Sequence record: NC_041937.1
Length of the DNA stretch: 64,000 nucleotides
Strand: one strand, 5' to 3'
DNA from: Escherichia phage V18
The notes below the pieces were generated by a model. It was not told the origin of the DNA and made no database searches. It was given only the letters and a program-made list of their open reading frames with translations. Made by a program: the position numbers and the translations under genes. How positions within the stretch are numbered: position 1 is the first letter of the stretch; the number at the start of each line of letters is the position of its first letter. Below are positions 1 through 49,808 of the stretch, in pieces.

Positions 1-31
1 AAAAGCCCCCGCCGAAGCGAGGGCAAAACAG

Positions 32-1064
32 TTACTTCAGTTTCTCTTGCAACCCAGTAACAACCTCTGTCAATTTTTTAACCTGCTCCTCAAGGGCGGT
101 TATTTTATCATCCTGCTCCCTGCAAACCTGGACAAGCAAGCCTGTTACAGCTGCGTAATCCACGCTGTAGAATCTTTCCTCTGTTATCAAAGGAGTTCCA
201 TCTTGATCAGGGTTTGGGATTTCCTTTCTTTGCACGAAAGAGCTAACTGCTTCCGGCAGCGCTTCAAGCACCTCTTGTGCTATAACACCTGCATAAGGCA
301 TACCATTCTCTTTCAAGGTGTAGGTATAACCCTTCATCTTACGGATAGCTTCTAACGCATCAGGAATAACAACTATGTTATCTTTCAGGTCTCTGTCAGA
401 ACTCTGATTGACAGATGTGCAATTCACAGCACCGTTTACAGAAAGATATCTTGATTTATCCGGCAAGGTACCGCAATGCCATACATAAGCTGATTGAGAC
501 TCGTCAAGAACCTTAAACTCTAGCACGTTTGGACGAGTCCCTGCACTGCCGTTGCCCCAATAATGCTGCCATCTGGAAAGCGTAGTTTCCAGAAAATGCC
601 ACAGACAACCCGCCAACAACCATTGAACCTTCAGGTCCGTTGACGTTGCCAGCCAGTATTTTGGATGGGTTGTTAGGCCCAAACTGGTTGTTCCAGTCTG
701 CACCAGTATGACATACAAAACCACCCGGTGCTGAGAAAGTGCCATCTTTGTTGAAGTTGTAGAATCTATGAGCTGTGCCTACAACATCGCGAACGATAAC
801 TTGACCAGCTTCCGGAGTAGATCTGAACTCTGCCTGGCCTTGCAGTCTTGCACCATTACCACATTTAGAGGTAAAGGTGTTGTTGATCAGATCCTCTGTT
901 CCTTCTGATGCAGCTTGGAACCCTGCGTTAGAGAACAGTGCTTTTCTAGTGGTCTGACTACCAGGACAAATGTAGTCAATACCGTCTGCCCAAAGCTCGA
1001 CTTTAGGCATGTTCATTTTGCTCATCACTGCATAGCGTTCAGGAGTCCCCAGGTAGTGCCACAT
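32..1064 (-). CDS. distal tail fibre protein with C-terminal intramolecular chaperone-like domain; reading frame changes near 540-560 (ORFs 513-1064 and 32-745)
   Basis: C-terminal SDRDLKDNIVVIPDALEAIRKMKGY followed by coiled coil resembles the self-cleaving chaperone domain of tail fibres/endosialidases; two overlapping ORFs in different frames. Confidence 0.5.
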
Positions 1065-1163
1065 AGTTCCACCACCAGTGTAGAAACCTGATGTTCCTTT
1101 GAACTCAACCAGAGGTCTGGTGTTTGTTACATCATCACCTTTGATTGCAAGACTTGGAAAGAA

Positions 1164-2963
1164 TCACCTCTGTCTGTCCAGCCACCAGTTCTGTAGTGAC
1201 ACTGTAGTGTAGCACAGTTCATTGGGTCCCCCTACAGTCCTGGCACTGGTACCACCACAAGCTATCGGTAGTGGTTCCCATTTGGCTTTCCGGTTGTTAT
1301 AAACACCCCATTCCAAACTGCCGTTACCGGATTCGTCCATCCCGCCATCCCAGATGACCATCTTGGCGGCTTTCTTAGATCCCCAGAAACCTCTTTCTGC
1401 TCCTGAACTGCGGATCCATTCTCCAAGTCCCCAGTTTGCCAGCTGACCGTTCAGATCACCAACCTGCATATATTTAGGACAATCTAAGACCCCATCCTCA
1501 CGGAAGCCTAAATATCTATGAGTTTCAGATCCTTTTGCGCCTTTGTGCAGGTGGATTGTCAACCAAGCCTTATTGTCGTTTCTTACCTCAGAGTAGATCC
1601 TATACCCATGCTCAAGGACACCGTCAGCGCTGTATTTGTCCCCGTTAACAATACCTGATGCTGACTTAACATCAGCAGAACTTTGAGACAGGTAAAGGTG
1701 CCCAAAGGTAGGGGAGTTTCTAGACCCGAGACCGATGTGTGCTCTAAAGGTATCATCGTTACGAGGTCTGACCATCGGCTGCCATGCAGTCCACTGATTT
1801 GTGTTGGCCTGGTAGGTTCTCAAATACCAAACATCTACGTTAGAGAATGGATAGTATTCCTGACGACAACCTGTACCGCCGTTAGCATTGTTCTGCCAAA
1901 CAATCAAGTGACCAGCACCAGAACCTGCAGGGTAACCATTTGCCTCAGTTGCATAGGCAGTCATCGGCTGGTAGTACACACCATCCTGATTACCAGTTAA
2001 GTTATTGATATTGAAATTTGGCTCAAGGGCTGCACGTTGCTTATAGAAAGCCCCCAAGTTAATGCGTGAACCTGCGGCATCCCTGGCACCTGTGCCGCCT
2101 TGCTCTATAGCAAGAGGTTGCCACGAAGCTGTTTGTTGGTTCCACATACCCCAACGGCCTGTTGCATCAAGCTGCAAGTACCCTGCTGTGTTTAAATCAT
2201 CTCCAGCACGGATAACTGTTCTTGTTGGGTTGTTTGCCTCTAGGCGTTTAAATTCATCACGAAGTGCTATTCTTTTTGTTGTTGCTACACCGTTGGTTAC
2301 TGCAATGGTATACATGGCTCCGGTGGTAGCGCCACGGAAAATACCATCAACAGTTGTAGTATCACGACGAGATACCACACCATTCAGAAATTTTTCACCA
2401 GCTGCTACAGAAGGGTAGTTGGTAGTTCTTCCCTCTTCAATAACTGCAGGGCCAACAAAGTTATCAAGGTGAATAACATCGCCTACAGTGTGCACTGTAC
2501 CAAAATCTACACGCTGTGCAAGGGCTTTAGCATCGTTAGCTGTCTGAACAGTAACATCCATTACATCCTGGACAGACTGCCCTTCGGCTGTCATAATCAT
2601 AGATGCGCCAATGGTAGATTCCAGCTCCTCCCTTAAGGACGGATCTGTATATACCATCCATGCAGCGTCAGTAATCCCACCATCGGAGTACGGTGAAGAT
2701 AGTGCAGGGACAGTGTGTGGAAATTCGCCTTTCCAACGCAGGTAGAGGTCTTCCTCTTCGAAGTAGGCAAAATCCATTGGGCCGTTTAACTTACCACCTT
2801 CCTTAAAGGAGATTACATGAGAAACAGTCCCATCCACATGGACAACATCGCCAATTTTTACACGACGAGTCAGGTCTGGTTGTTGAACAACCAGGTAATC
2901 ATCCTCTGTCACTGCGGTAGTGGCAGGAAGAGATTCAATTCTGACAACTTTAATATCAGCCAT
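1164..2963 (-). CDS. tail fibre protein
   Basis: 599 aa; N-terminus DDYLVVQQPDLTRRVKIGDVV shared with ORF 5598-6266; GGTGA(R) ... NLG fibre motifs (QGGTGARDAAGSRINLGA, ACGGTSAR). Confidence 0.7.
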   Translation of the reverse strand: MADIKVVRIESLPATTAVTEDDYLVVQQPDLTRRVKIGDVVHVDGTVSHVISFKEGGKLNGPMDFAYFEEEDLYLRWKGEFPHTVPALSSPYSDGGITDAAWMVYTDPSLREELESTIGASMIMTAEGQSVQDVMDVTVQTANDAKALAQRVDFGTVHTVGDVIHLDNFVGPAVIEEGRTTNYPSVAAGEKFLNGVVSRRDTTTVDGIFRGATTGAMYTIAVTNGVATTKRIALRDEFKRLEANNPTRTVIRAGDDLNTAGYLQLDATGRWGMWNQQTASWQPLAIEQGGTGARDAAGSRINLGAFYKQRAALEPNFNINNLTGNQDGVYYQPMTAYATEANGYPAGSGAGHLIVWQNNANGGTGCRQEYYPFSNVDVWYLRTYQANTNQWTAWQPMVRPRNDDTFRAHIGLGSRNSPTFGHLYLSQSSADVKSASGIVNGDKYSADGVLEHGYRIYSEVRNDNKAWLTIHLHKGAKGSETHRYLGFREDGVLDCPKYMQVGDLNGQLANWGLGEWIRSSGAERGFWGSKKAAKMVIWDGGMDESGNGSLEWGVYNNRKAKWEPLPIACGGTSARTVGGPNELCYTTVSLQNWWLDRQR

Positions 2964-18387: not shown

Positions 18388-19212
18388 TTATTCACCACCT
18401 TTCAGAGTTGCTTTAACAACCAGCTCTGGACGGGTGTTAACTGCCAGCATGGAAGTTTCAGATTCAATCTTCTCTTCACGCAGGTATGCAGAGTGTTTAT
18501 ACCACATGTACAGTTCCTGTGCTGGAGTGTTTGCTTCGTTAACATCGTCTGCCGGAGCAAAGTGCAGCTGGAACATCTGATCAATACCCATCGGCAGAAT
18601 GCGAGCTTCTTTCTTAGGAATATTGCCAGAGATATCTTCGATAAAGGTGATACCTTTATGCTCAAACACACGGTATACGCTGTCTTGACCGCCAGCACCC
18701 AGACGGCGACGCAGAGGTTCCTGAGCAGAGCCGTAATAGGTGTATGCCAGTTCTACCAGAGGGTCATACTGACAGGTTGTGTCACCAGGTGCATAGGATT
18801 TACCCAGAATAGCCTGGAACAGCGCTTTCTCACGCAGTGCTTCATGAGAAACACGGATACGGCGAACAACGCGGGTTACTACGTCCTGAACAGTTTTCGG
18901 AGCATCAGGTGTGAAGTAACGACGGAAGTTCTGAACATCTGCTGCGGTGATGCCTTTGTCCAGAGGGAAGAACGGGATGTTCAGGTTTTTAACCTGAGCA
19001 CGTTCACTACCAACGTAGTTACGCTCACCACCACGACGGCGTGCCGGAATGTCGGTTACAACTTCATCAACACGCTCAATCTGAGCAATTGTTGAGGTGC
19101 CGAGACGGGTTTCGAACAGATCCATACCAGTAATCAGGCGGAATTGACGCGGAACAAGGTCCAGAGTAGCACCTAAATCAACAATGCCAAATTCATCTTT
19201 ACGAGTAATCAT
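18388..19212 (-). CDS. putative major capsid protein
   Basis: 274 aa; strongly biased GC-rich codon usage unlike neighbours (high expression); downstream of portal and head ORFs; perfect 10 bp GC hairpin terminator follows. Confidence 0.55.
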   Translation of the reverse strand: MITRKDEFGIVDLGATLDLVPRQFRLITGMDLFETRLGTSTIAQIERVDEVVTDIPARRRGGERNYVGSERAQVKNLNIPFFPLDKGITAADVQNFRRYFTPDAPKTVQDVVTRVVRRIRVSHEALREKALFQAILGKSYAPGDTTCQYDPLVELAYTYYGSAQEPLRRRLGAGGQDSVYRVFEHKGITFIEDISGNIPKKEARILPMGIDQMFQLHFAPADDVNEANTPAQELYMWYKHSAYLREEKIESETSMLAVNTRPELVVKATLKGGE

Positions 19213-19296
19213 TTATTTCTCCAAAGTAAAATTGTAGCCAGCATCGCTAGAATCAACTTTGCCGAGCACGATATCAGAATATTGAGCGGTAATCAT
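19213..19296 (-). CDS. small upstream ORF (27 aa) preceding capsid gene
   Basis: MITAQYSDIVLGKVDSSDAGYNFTLEK; shares GAAATAAATGATTAC initiation region with the capsid gene; may be leader peptide or non-functional. Confidence 0.25.
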   Translation of the reverse strand: MITAQYSDIVLGKVDSSDAGYNFTLEK

Positions 19297-19380
19297 TTAT
19301 TTCCCCCGTTAAACTCTTATGCTTCAGCAGATCCAGATACTCTTTAGTTTTGGTTGCGTCCCTTGATCAGGTTCCCTTCT

Positions 19381-19728
19381 TTATCGAAGAGATCCCAGCC
19401 TACCAATACAAGACTCTGCGTCAGCTTGCGCCCATTCCCAATCAGGATGCTCTTTAGCCCAAGCCTCCTCTTCAATCTCAAAACCAAGCATGTGTGCAAG
19501 TGCTTTAGCATCATCATACCACATATCGAAGAAACGACGCAAGTATTCTTCAAAACTAAGCTCCACAGTAACTTGGCGAAGTGCCTTAACAATATCGTCT
19601 GTTAACTGCTCAGGCTTAAGATCACTCTTCATCAAAAGAGATACAGGTCTGTTGTTAGCGCTATAGCCTTGCGCCTTATGGCACAGGGCAATCCCCTTCT
19701 CTTTAATAGTAATCGTTTTTTCAGACAT
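19381..19728 (-). CDS. hypothetical head protein
   Basis: 115 aa acidic ORF between portal and capsid genes. Confidence 0.4.
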   Translation of the reverse strand: MSEKTITIKEKGIALCHKAQGYSANNRPVSLLMKSDLKPEQLTDDIVKALRQVTVELSFEEYLRRFFDMWYDDAKALAHMLGFEIEEEAWAKEHPDWEWAQADAESCIGRLGSLR

Positions 19729-21873: not shown

Positions 21874-23429
21874 TTAGATAAAACGCTTGAACATAGAAGG
21901 TGATGAGATTGATGGAATCACACAAGGAAGTGCTACCTCCTCTTTCTCCAGGAAATTAATCGCAGAAGCTACACAGTCGGCCCAGTCGTCTTTTCTGTTA
22001 AATGTTGATCTTTCCCCGTTGAATTTTTCAAGTTCAGTCAGAAATGCTTCCAGAGTATCAGGATGGAAACTGGATTTTACAATCCTCACCATTCCTTGTT
22101 GGGCAAGATTGGCAAAAGGTGAGAACCTTGTCAGTTTAGATTTGTTGGAAGGCATTGGGTCTTCTTCAACCCTAAACCCTTCGGCAAGCAAGGATCTGGA
22201 GGAGGTTAAGAACTCACTCTTACCTGCCTGACCGGGGTCCACAGAGAATACGATTATACAATCATCACCATCAAACTGCGCCTGTTTCCTGATGATCACA
22301 TCTCGTTCACCAGCCTTTTTACAGAACTTGCCTTCCAGACCTGTGGAATACCTCCCGTCATCCACGTTCTCAGGACAATAATCCCCGGACAGGTAATAAA
22401 AGCCGTCGCTATCTTTACTTACCTTGACACTGGCGGTAAAGTCAGGAAATTTATTACCGGAAGTTCTCTCGGTTCCTGCTTTATCCCATGCCCTGCAAGA
22501 CACTGATCCAAGGGGTACTCTATCGGCATCACGAAGGAAAGATCTTTGAAAATAGTTTGCACCCTCAGGCTTTGCAAACCAGTTACCATGGAGAAGCTGA
22601 GCTTTTTCAAGCTCGGGCAGACCTTCAAGGAAAGCAAGGTATTCTGGGTTGTCTCTTAAGCAGACAGGATTATCGAAGATTGTTGCGCCTATAAACGAGA
22701 ATGACAACGGTCTCGGCTTGATCTCTACACCCAGTCCGTTAACCGTGGTGTATTTCTCTATCAACTCTTCTTTAGAGTCTCCCCAGATAAATTCACCGTC
22801 GCGTCGGATAAAATATCTTTTCTTACCGCATTTCTCCGGATCTGGATACCCTTCATCGTCCAACCACCACCTAACCAGTTTGGCAAGCATGTGTTCTGAA
22901 TCGGGGTTACAGCTGATAACCATTCTTGATGGATACTTTGACTGAGATCTCAGACGAGACATCAGATAGTCTATCTGCTCCCATTCGAACTGCGTGCCTC
23001 ATCGAAGCAAACCAAGCAAACCATGGTATACTCAAGCCCTTGATGGTTAAGCTTATCTTGTACATACTCCATGTGGCAGTATTTTACAACAGCTCCCTTT
23101 TTGCTTCTATCCCACTTGCCAGTGTTCGGATCAAACCGTGGAAAAATGAACTTATGATCCTTCTCTCTGAACTTTGGCTTAATGTTTTCAGGCAGATCAC
23201 TATAAATAGCTACTGCTTTAGGCCATAGTCCACCCTCACCTTCCAACTGTGGGGTTGTTCTTCGGAACATAACCACAGAGCTGTGGGGGTCATCAATAAT
23301 TTTAAGTGGCATCAATTGCAAGAGGAACGACTTGCCAGACCCTGCGGCACCGCCGATTACCAAAATATCTGCATCGTTTTCGAGGATCATCTTCTGCTTT
23401 TCAGAACACGGTCCGTAAATCTTAGACAT
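21874..23429 (-). CDS. terminase large subunit, split into two frames (ATPase ORF 22971-23429, nuclease ORF 21874-22962)
   Basis: Walker A GGAAGSGKS and Walker B CLVCFDEA in N-terminal ORF; other frame continues ...EWEQIDYLMSRLRSQSKYPSRMVISCNPD after a single frame change. Confidence 0.75.
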
Positions 23430-24531: not shown

Positions 24532-24608
24532 TGGTCTCCACGGAGTGATTCGAACACTCGACCTCCTGATCCCAATGGTTTATCTCTACCAAGCTGAGCT
24601 ACGCGGAG
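24532..24608 (-). tRNA. tRNA-like gene, Pro(UGG)-like, with non-pairing 5' anticodon-stem strand
   Basis: Hand-folded: acceptor CTCCGCG/CGTGGAG, T-arm GAGTG-TTCGAAT-CACTC, encoded CCA, loop ATTGGGA, but AAACC cannot pair with TCAGG. Confidence 0.45.
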
Positions 24609-24619
24609 TATTTATTATT

Positions 24620-24694
24620 TGGTGGCCCTGGGTGGAATTGAACCACCGTCTGGCGATTATGAGTCGCTTGCTTGAACCTTCCAGCTACAGGGCA
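24620..24694 (-). tRNA. tRNA-Met (anticodon CAT)
   Basis: Hand-folded cloverleaf: anticodon loop CTCATAA, T-arm GGTGG-TTCAATT-CCACC, encoded CCA; position 1:72 is a T:C mismatch. Confidence 0.6.
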
Positions 24695-24770
24695 TGGTGC
24701 TGATAGCAGGACTCGAACCTGCAACCTATTGATTACAAATCAATTGCACTACCAATTGTGCTACATCAGC
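24695..24770 (-). tRNA. tRNA-Thr (anticodon TGT)
   Basis: Acceptor GCTGATG/TATCAGC, D-arm GCAC/GTGC, anticodon stem ATTGA/TCAAT with loop TTTGTAA, T-arm GCAGG-TTCGAGT-CCTGC, CCA encoded. Confidence 0.7.
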
Positions 24771-24867
24771 AAAAAGGTGCTAGGTGATGGAATCGAACCA
24801 CCTATGTATTCAACGACCAATAGATTTACAGTCTACACCGCTACCTCTACGGGATAACTCCCCAATT
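24771..24867 (-). tRNA. tRNA-like element with Tyr(GUA)-type anticodon arm; acceptor stem not resolved
   Basis: Anticodon arm GTAGA-CTGTAAA-TCTAT and T-arm GGTGG-TTCGATT-CCATC present, long variable region, but 5' and 3' ends do not pair; may be degenerate or mis-folded by me. Confidence 0.3.
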
Positions 24868-24942
24868 TGGCACCCCGTACTGGACTCGAACCAGTGTCAA
24901 CGGCTTAGAAGGCCGCTGCTTTATCCACTAAGCTAACAGGGC
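24868..24942 (-). tRNA. tRNA-Arg (anticodon TCT)
   Basis: Acceptor GCCCTGT/ACGGGGT with G:U pairs, D-arm GCTT/AAGC, anticodon stem GCGGC/GCCGT with loop CTTCTAA, T-arm ACTGG-TTCGAGT-CCAGT, CCA encoded. Confidence 0.65.
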
Positions 24943-47410: not shown

Positions 47411-47689
47411 ATGAGCTGCGAAAAATCTTTTTTCATCATCATTTACGGTAAGGATAACTGCCCACACTGTGTCAGAGCAAAAGAATTTGCAATCAGCAAA
47501 GGTCTGCCTTTTGTATATAAGACACTTGGCGATGGCTACACAAAAGAAGAGCTTATTGAGAAGTGTAGTCCAATTGTCCCCAGAACGTTGCCGCAGATCT
47601 TCTTAGAAAGCGATCTTGACAGTATCCATATAGGCGGTGCCGACGATTTCATCTCTTTTGTTAAGAATGGTTTTGGAGAGAAAAAGTGA
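47411..47689 (+). CDS. glutaredoxin/thioredoxin-like protein
   Basis: 92 aa; redox motif YGKDNCPHCVRAK (CPHC). Confidence 0.65.
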   Translation: MSCEKSFFIIIYGKDNCPHCVRAKEFAISKGLPFVYKTLGDGYTKEELIEKCSPIVPRTLPQIFLESDLDSIHIGGADDFISFVKNGFGEKK

Positions 47690-49808
47690 AAGTTGTAAAA
47701 CGGGACGGTAGAGAAGAGTTCTATAACGGAATTAAGGTGATCAAGGCGGCAGAGTCCGCCTTACTTGAGTCTGGACATACTGAAGAAGAAGCTTACCGGA
47801 TCGCCTGCGCGGTTAATGAAGTTGTTGCTAACAATCTACCAACCGACCAGTGCACGATCTCTGTAAAAAATATCCATATCCTTGTTGAAGATGCTCTTAT
47901 GGATATGGGTTTAAAATGTGCAGCCAGAGAATACATCCAGTATAGACAGACAAGAGATAATAACAGAGAGGCAGGTGGAAAACTGCTTGCAGATATTAGT
48001 GGCTTCTTGGATCGAACTTGTGATGAATTTACAAAAGAAAACGCAAATAAGCCCACTAATCATGTACACACTCATCGTGACCTGCTTGCAGGCATCCTTA
48101 GCAAACACCTTGCATCAACACAGATCCTGCCAGACCGTGTTTCAGAAGAGCACAATAAAGGCTTCATCCATGTGCATGATCTTGACTACTTGATCAGTCC
48201 GTTAACAAACTGTTGTTTGGTAAATTATCCAGATATGTTGGAAAACGGATTCAACATTGGCAACGCCCATGTCAGTAAGCCGAAGTCAATAGGGGTTGCA
48301 ACAACAATCCTTAGCCAAATCTCTAGTGCGGTAGCTAGTGCTCAATATGGTGGTCAGACTATGAGCCATATTGATCATTATCTGGCACAGTATGCTGAAG
48401 CGACCTATGAGAAGAACCTTAAATTTTGCCAGGAACATTGGTTGCCAGATGCTGAGACTGTTGCAATGCAAATGACAGATAAAGACGTGTTTGACAGCAT
48501 GCAGACGTTGCTTTATCAGATCAACACACTAACCTCGGTAAACGGTAACCCCTTTTATCACATTAAGTTTAGGTTTGGACACTTCGGTCTTTGGTAGAAT
48601 GATTACCAAAAACTACCTGAAAGTCCACAAAATGGGTCTTGGTGAAGAACGTATTACACCTGTGTTCCCTAAAGTGCTGTTCTTCCTAGAAGAGGGTGTC
48701 AACATGAACCCTGGGGATCCTAACTACGATTTGAAACGATTAGCTCTGGAATGCTGTGCAGAACGTATCTACCTGACTTCGTATCTGTACCACTAAATAG
48801 AAAAGTGACAGGCTCGACAGATGGCAAAGTAACGAGCATGGGATATGTAGAAGTTTCTTATCGAAATATAGCGACCCTGTAACAGGCGAGGAGAAATACC
48901 TTGGCAGATTTAACTTAGGCGTTGTTAGCCTTAACCTGCCAATGATTGCGGCAAAAGCTAAGACGGAAGGTGTTGATTTCTTTGCAGTTCTTGACGAATA
49001 CTTGGATCTTGCATACGAGGCTCACCTTGTAAGGGTTAATCGTCTAAAAGGAACAAAGGCGGGGCAGAACCCCATCATGTGGTGTGAAGGCGCTCTTGCT
49101 CGCCTGGATCCCGAAGAGAGTATTGATAAACTCTTCTATGACGGGTACGCTTCCATCAGTATTGGGTATATCGGTGTGTATGAAACCTGTCAGATTTTGG
49201 GTAGAGAAGGCGACAAGGCTTTAGCTCTTGGAATCCTTCAGCACATGAGAGATGCTTGTGAGCGATACAAGAAGGAAAGTAGACTAGCATTTAGCTTGTA
49301 CGGCACTCCTTCTGAGAGTCTATGCTATAAAGCTGCAACCTGTCTGGATCGTGAATATCCGGAAGTGTTGAAGCACGAGCATGAATATCTCACCAACAGT
49401 TTCCATCAGCCAGTATGGATAAATAGCTCTCCTTTTGATAAGTGGGAGTATGAGGAAGGTTTTGCTATGATCTCCTCTGGTGGCAACATCGGATACGTAG
49501 AGACACCTAACCTGAAAAACAACCTGGATGCTTTAGAGGCCCTTGTTGACTTCGGGTATAAACACATTATGTATTTTGGTATTAACCAACCTGTAGATAA
49601 ATGTCTCAAGTGTGGTTTCTCTGGTGAGTTCAGTGCAACAGCTAAAGGCTTTGTATGCCCAGAGTGTGGAAACCATGAAGAGGGAACGATCAGTGTAATT
49701 CGACGTGTGTCTGGATACCTTTCCAGTCCTAACTCCCGTCCTTACAATAAAGGTAAGCAAGCGGAAGTTATCGAGCGAGTTAAGCACTACGGAAGTTGTG
49801 GTTGCTGA
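47686..49808 (+). CDS. nrdD: anaerobic ribonucleoside-triphosphate reductase, interrupted by three frame changes
   Basis: N-terminal ATP-cone; segments resembling E. coli NrdD (ERIYPDF...KVTGS, CRSFL, RFNLGVVSLNLPMIA, glycyl-radical RVSGYL, CxxC zinc ribbon) lie in frames 1, 2, 1 and 0. Confidence 0.7.

Follow-up and report, generated by a model that had tools for sequence, protein, structure and literature searches.

Whether the large terminase gene of Escherichia phage V18 is genuinely divided between two reading frames, or only appears so in the sequence on record (NC_041937.1), is the question raised by positions 21,874 to 23,429 of the window, i.e., of the whole 64,000-nt stretch of this genome that was analysed. 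The terminase large subunit (TerL) gene lies here on the minus strand in a spanins-TerL-portal synteny and is read as two ORFs (Table 1). The initial annotation had described them as an ATPase half (22971-23429) and a nuclease half (21874-22962) in different frames, separated by one frame change for which an indel error was the most likely cause. Both ORFs are indeed found there and differ in frame by -1, which corresponds to a single frame change. In this region, more than 110 genomes of Vequintavirus (rV5-like) coliphages match at 97-99% identity, with FV3 as the best match (99.1%), and for neither the first nor the last 25 kb of the window was there a phage record matching at 99% or more across the query.

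Table 1. Coordinates of the features of the TerL locus and of the frame breaks in the window.
Feature	Position	Strand	Remarks
TerL, whole gene, Vequintavirus	21874..23429	-	1556 nt as given; FV3 homology, Pfam matches
TerL first ORF, 152 aa	22971..23429	-	start MSKIYGP, end FDEARSSNGSR*
TerL second ORF as listed, 362 aa	21874..22962	-	from first ATG, start MSRLRSQSKYPSRMVISCNPD
Walker A / P-loop GGAAGSGKS	23328..23354	-	direct sequence reading
Walker B strand and catalytic Glu, LVCFDE	22998..23015	-	MVCFDE in relatives
9-bp tandem duplication, GGTTTGCTT x2	23005..23022	-	perfect, in frame; FV3 alignment
GG run, GGG in all relatives	22997..22998	-	frame-breaking lesion
TGA bounding the downstream frame at its 5' end	22999..23001	-	
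TAG stop of the 152-aa ORF	22973-22971	-	
Empty intron insertion site 1 (rV5-type group I)	between C22996 and A22995	-	relatives, PMC3606486
Baseplate hub, frame break	about 7972		
Tape measure, frame break	11559		
gp053, frame break	15503		
gp057, frame break	17908		
TerL, frame break	22998		
RNA ligase, frame break	29600		
gp204, frame break	about 30050		
HNH gene, frame break	34608		
DNA methyltransferase, frame break	39690		
Anaerobic RNR large subunit, frame break	48843		
PhoH, frame break	51252		
gp144, frame break	about 59640		
gp143, frame break	59895		
gp137, frame break	61961		

The first ORF encodes 144 genuine TerL residues, from Walker A to Walker B and including three that are duplicated, followed by eight out-of-frame residues (ARSSNGSR) and the TAG; its C-terminal end reads MVCLVCFDEARSSNGSR*, and the exact 152-aa product has no match on record. 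The downstream frame is open back to the TGA at 23001-22999 and reads GTQFEWEQIDYLMSRLRS, the same reading as had been quoted for the second frame past the N-terminal stop. Read in the true TerL frame, the sequence is open from 22998 onwards and encodes GTQFEWEQIDYL ahead of the ATG of the 362-aa ORF, which itself comprises the remainder of the ATPase domain and the RNase-H-like nuclease domain. A switch between the two frames is only possible in the approximately 30 nt that separate this TGA from the TAG at 22973-22971. As given, the continuous reading frame that characterizes a terminase changes at 22998-22997; it is recovered once a single G is restored, yielding a gene of 1557 nt with a 518-aa ORF and zero stops. 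Stop-codon reassignment was rejected, as the locus shows a frame change and, past the TAG, the first frame meets a TGA three codons on.

Several features of T4-type large terminases are present, namely a Terminase_6N ATPase domain, a Walker A motif (GxxxxGK[ST]), a Walker B motif (hhhhDE) and a Terminase_6C domain. In the intact homolog, Pfam Terminase_6N (ATPase) covers residues 25-294 and Terminase_6C (nuclease) about residues 394-489. Since the frame breaks at residue 141/142, one codon past the Walker B strand and catalytic Glu (LVCFDE, 23015-22998), the break falls in the middle of the ATPase domain and not at the boundary between ATPase and nuclease. Against Terminase_6N (cut-off 22), the intact FV3 homolog scores 72.2 bits, the first ORF 20.6 bits over profile positions 2-105, i.e., just under the cut-off, and the second ORF 28.1 bits over positions 117-211; residues 241-336 of the latter also match Terminase_6C (29.2 bits, cut-off 22.6). 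The labels of ATPase half and nuclease half hold insofar as the frames differ, and are otherwise loose, as the second ORF also holds half of the ATPase domain. These domain boundaries are those of Pfam, as the intact TerL matched no PDB sequence at E <= 0.01.

Alignment with FV3 reveals exactly two lesions at the junction, a gain of 9 nt and a loss of 1 nt, separated by 4 nt; together they amount to +8 nt and hence to a -1 frame. The gain is a duplication of GGTTTGCTT that adds three residues (MVCFDE becomes MVCLVCFDE) and is the sole private perfect tandem duplication of more than 3 bp in the window. The loss removes one G and turns GAG GGC ACG into GAGGCACG or, when the preceding codon is included, GAT GAG GGC ACG into GATGAGGCACG (22998-22997). 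The missing G is what breaks the frame; the adjacent 9-bp duplication is in frame and is not a cause of the frame change. The earlier description of a single frame change is correct; compared to the relatives, there are two lesions, the G deletion and the in-frame duplication. Nucleotide identity to FV3 TerL is 99.1% overall and 99.6% outside the junction, where FV3 and the window differ by 6 substitutions in about 1.7 kb.

Both lesions were searched for in other sequences. A 101-nt junction query was matched at full length to phage records, and 103 of the 103 full-length matches span 93 nt as opposed to 101 in the query, so that both lesions are absent from them. No IMG/VR contig carries the duplication and none the G deletion, and in JGI metagenome contigs the duplication is absent, be it alone or together with the deletion. 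The same is true of independent ENA/Logan/NCBI assemblies encoding either the exact portal protein of the window or its exact 362-aa ORF, all of which (16/16) are devoid of both lesions. At the junction, the intron-less relatives FV3, Murica, L013 and L014 read GATGAGGGCACGCAG, and L018, which is intron-less as well, displays synonymous variants of its own (GAA GGC ACG CAA).

Frame breaks also affect many other genes of the window. In an indel census that used phage Murica (RefSeq) as the reference, 55 indels were counted, the largest class being losses of single bases from the window, for the most part within short runs of G or C. When the 108 Murica proteins of the homologous region were compared to the window by tblastn, 84 were intact and at least 14 were split between two frames at one point, mostly with 92-100% identity on either side, and lower values for the divergent gp204, gp137 and anaerobic RNR. 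Besides TerL, 13 genes are split by private indels of 1-2 bases, the majority being deletions within short runs of G/C, and TGAGGGC, AGGGT and TCTGGG recur as contexts of the frame breaks. Nearly all such deletions are also private relative to FV3, a comparison that holds only where FV3 covers the window, and none of those located near TerL (17908, 22996, 24223 and 24692) is shared by any of the 16 extra loci covering them. Per run, the deletion rate is about 1% for G/C triplets (7/658), 0.18% for G/C doublets and about 0.03% for single bases, versus 0/1525 for A/T triplets and 1-5% for A/T runs of 5-6. G/C runs are favoured over A/T runs of the same length, and a simple homopolymer error model based on length only does not fit. 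From these run-type rates, about 0.75 chance deletions are expected in the 1548-nt TerL gene, and one deletion there is therefore what chance predicts.

One of the split genes displays an additional feature: in the anaerobic RNR large subunit (window 47686-48863), the first ~387 aa are 82% identical to Murica and the rest 97%, with small indels clustered at 48546-48863. On top of the frame break, this step in identity may correspond to a mosaic or gene-conversion boundary.

The substitutions, in turn, bear on the state of the lineage. Downstream of the shift, TerL differs from its Murica counterpart by 21 synonymous and 2 non-synonymous codons. Over 14,490 codons, the codon changes private to the window comprise 466 synonymous, 106 non-synonymous and 1 nonsense, the latter being located at an alignment edge beside the gp204 indel, and 491 of the 625 window-private changes are at third positions. 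As the private changes are mostly synonymous, the lineage is under ordinary purifying selection and is not decaying. Read together with this pattern, the frame breaks and gaps of the window would be artefacts, or would have arisen essentially at the moment of sequencing.

The gaps in question are found in the head-gene block (18760-19400), where comparison to three independent assemblies shows that five internal pieces of about 116, 82, 366, 349 and 181 nt are missing, with islands of 34-94 nt and 98-100% identity kept between them. The major capsid ORF (18388-19212) is 274 aa long instead of 335, very little is left of the decoration gene, and the gp060 homolog has only 115 aa instead of 325; because of this, no viable virion could be produced from the sequence as written. 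The gaps look like collapsed coverage gaps, which makes the window a poor-quality draft or consensus and not a viable phage genome as written. Patchy matches are also observed for the tail fibre gene (the Murica gp040 homolog, window 1-2963), over aa 1-578, 638-663, 742-946 and 1095-1270; natural receptor-binding mosaicism or further collapsed sequence could be responsible.

The tRNA region has peculiarities of its own. Three tRNAs (Met, Thr and Arg) are detected at 24620-24942, whereas FV3 has five, rV5 six (as annotated) and Murica seven; the region is about 370 nt shorter than in Murica and is devoid of tRNA-Ser, tRNA-Tyr and an odd 99-nt tRNA-like gene. A private deletion of one base at 24692/24693 leaves the tRNA-Met and tRNA-Thr genes directly adjacent to each other. 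A degenerate tRNA-Pro gene, in which an 8-nt block of the anticodon stem is replaced, lies at 24532-24608 on the minus strand and is detected neither by ARAGORN nor by Rfam. Its flanks match at 100% the allele of 241Ecol014PP and of several "Campylobacter phage" records, and the 241Ecol014PP-type allele carries a 342-nt HNH endonuclease gene at the same spot. The tRNA-Pro of the window looks like an HNH-linked natural allele minus the HNH cassette, and an artefactual origin of the 8-nt block change was rejected, since the change matches a natural allele linked to HNH insertion; not all oddities of the window are therefore errors. As for the "Campylobacter phage" entries (MG0656xx, about 18-21 GenBank records), they are Vequintavirus genomes 97% identical to the window coliphage, which makes their host labels doubtful; the record examined, C9, bears the mark UNVERIFIED and has no annotation.

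The TerL break coincides with a site known for mobile introns. In rV5, TerL is made of three segments interrupted by two group I introns (Kropinski et al., 2013, PMC3606486; NC_011041 rv5_gp065, a 3-piece join). Site 1 corresponds to nt 426/427 of the FV3 CDS, with exon 1 ending in GAT GAG GGT and exon 2 starting with ACA CAA TTC, and holds an intron in rV5, slur12, 241Ecol014PP and many relatives from metagenomes; the second site is found near nt 741-744. Among relatives with the same portal protein (the L002-L005, L009-L025 set), introns are present at both sites, at one or at neither; the site 1 intron comes with or without a 196-aa Endonuclease_7-family ORF, and the site 2 intron with or without a 228-aa HNH_3 ORF. 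Beside the site, intron-plus exons carry synonymous changes (GGT ACA CAA versus GGC ACG CAG). This polymorphism among phages with an identical portal protein indicates that homing is probably active.

The window resembles rV5 in that TerL appears as several ORFs, with the first break of rV5 (site 1, GGT/ACA) only 1-3 nt from the missing G; in addition, gene calls of exon 2 in intron-bearing relatives give a product identical to the 362-aa ORF. In contrast to rV5, the window is intron-less according to Rfam, and its gene is just 8 nt over the intron-less allele. Indeed, the ORF-less TerL inserts of relatives score 84-88 bits with Rfam Intron_gpI, whereas a scan of the whole window at the Rfam gathering threshold returns only 3 tRNAs and no intron. 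An intron-split TerL was rejected on these grounds, i.e., no intron found by Rfam and a junction merely 8 nt longer than in the intron-less allele, and the lesion, being a 1-nt deletion, is beyond repair by splicing. Imprecise loss of an intron was rejected as well, because the start of exon 2 (CACGCAG) is of the intron-less allele type and not of the intron-plus type (ACACAA). The missing G is 1-3 nt and the duplication 10-27 nt upstream of the empty site 1. As TerL holds 28 G/C runs of at least 3, the chance that the run hit is the site-1 run is about 1 in 28, and the fall of the G deletion at the intron site can be seen as a mild coincidence.

How, then, might the gene be explained if the sequence were taken at face value? 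Programmed -1 frameshifting is known in phage genes, the lambda gpG/gpGT tail chaperone being an example, and the likeness with TerL is that two overlapping frames together encode one longer protein: a ribosomal frameshift of -1, or slippage during transcription, within the ~30 nt shared by the frames would lead to full-length TerL. In contrast to the lambda type, there is neither a slippery heptamer nor conservation, and no recoding of TerL is known for this family. The overlap (23001-22971) holds neither an X XXY YYZ heptamer in the zero frame nor a homopolymer of five or more, and -1 frameshifting or slippage of TerL was rejected on that basis. Conservation of the frameshift would also be expected, yet all relatives are single-frame here, which leaves no conserved element that could have evolved as a recoding signal; moreover, the same type of break is found in 13 other unrelated genes. 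Recoding thus has a vanishingly small likelihood. Virtually no credence goes either to the idea that TerL functions as two polypeptides, an ATPase N-fragment and the remainder. Split phage enzymes do exist, and the Aeh1 NrdA is made of two translated peptides (PMC7344957). Here, however, the break would separate Walker B and the catalytic Glu from the downstream ISCNP segment, within the ATPase fold, and the protein would go without the 12 conserved residues GTQFEWEQIDYL; furthermore, the second ATG lacks an RBS at a workable distance, the one GGAG-like sequence being located about 17 nt ahead of it, and this arrangement exists in no relative. Gradual pseudogenisation, with the window as the remnant of a decaying phage, would account for the many frameshifts and internal deletions, but it is highly improbable given that 81% of private substitutions are synonymous, with a third-position bias and no genuine nonsense codon, and given the 97-99% identity to active lytic phages. 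Vequintaviruses are virulent phages.

A more specific proposal is that the G deletion, together with the duplication, is truly in the DNA, for example as the scar of double-strand-break repair after the Endonuclease_7-type homing endonuclease of the site 1 intron cut the intron-less allele during a mixed infection, the scar being carried by a defective genome or subpopulation that dominated the consensus. The closeness of the two lesions, 4 nt apart and upstream of the mapped intron site, speaks in its favour, as do the high polymorphism of the intron at identical portal protein, with homing probably active, and the footprint of another mobile HNH element at tRNA-Pro. Nevertheless, a frameshift inside the ATPase core of TerL would be lethal, one homing event cannot explain the breaks in the tape measure and baseplate hub genes or the capsid gaps, and the G deletion fits the error class seen throughout the window and is in no other genome. 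A real mutation of this kind is consequently quite improbable.

What we consider very likely instead is that the split of TerL is an artefact, the GGG run being one G short owing to the same class of error as elsewhere in the window. The G deletion is private and belongs to a class of lesions that recurs in many genes, in a lineage that is under purifying selection; from this, we infer that a base-calling or assembly error is the probable cause, and not a real mutation. TerL would then be an ordinary single-ORF, intron-less Vequintavirus large terminase that is one base short, the G having been lost from the GGG right after the Asp-Glu of Walker B (GAT GAG GGC ACG), and its loss would be one case of a window-wide, deletion-biased error that favours short G/C runs. 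Homopolymer indel errors are a general sequencing artefact of draft phage genomes. The window shares with them a one-base deletion in a run of bases that is blind to essentiality and private to one record; it differs by its bias toward short runs of G/C instead of long runs of A/T, and by the presence of gaps and of one 9-bp duplication. Three properties expected of an artefact are found here: the lesion is private among close relatives, its class recurs regardless of gene essentiality, and the signature of purifying selection is preserved downstream of it. The initial suggestion of an indel error is thus borne out, with the GGG intact in every relative examined and at least 13 other genes likewise split, and it is further supported by the about 0.75 deletions expected, the purifying selection downstream and the lack of a recoding signal.

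Some observations speak against an artefact. A perfect 9-bp tandem duplication is an atypical base-calling error, two independent lesions 4 nt apart would occur by chance in about 1-2% of cases at the indel density of the window, and both lesions sit at the homing site of a group I intron. This proximity of the lesions and the intron site leaves room for a single real local event. With no second duplication of this kind in the window and a distance of 4 nt to the deletion, a common local origin of both lesions is probable. The likeliest origin of the duplication is an artefact of local consensus or contig joining; our guess is that heterogeneity between intron-plus and intron-minus sequences, or the use of an intron-bearing reference (e.g., rV5), broke the assembly here. 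Less likely than an artefact, and on the whole rather unlikely, is that the duplication is a real in-frame allele, either a scar of homing-cleavage repair or an endonuclease-resistant allele, with the G deletion as an unrelated error. Because the duplication is in tandem, the Walker B strand LVCFDE is formed anew and only the preceding loop becomes longer; if real, the duplication would displace by 9 nt what lies upstream of the empty intron site.

With an artefactual loss of the G as the favoured explanation, the closest counterparts of the gene are the TerL of FV3 (AEZ65200.1, JQ031132) and gp063 of Murica (YP_009593907.1). They are the same gene in the same synteny, with the spanins upstream and the portal downstream, and FV3 has the same intron-less allele, GGC ACG CAG; they differ from the window in having 515 aa in one frame, the window having one G fewer in the GGG run as well as the 9-bp duplication. 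The split TerL would therefore not be a real feature of the phage, and its value would be that of a quality flag on the window, which, with at least 14 frame-split genes and gaps in the capsid block, is unfit for mining pseudogenes, recoding or split genes. For annotation purposes, TerL should be repaired conceptually by adding one G, or the record marked as low quality. The biology of interest at this locus is that already published, namely the mobile group I introns that rV5-type phages carry at two fixed sites of TerL, and it is on one of these sites that the probable artefact falls.
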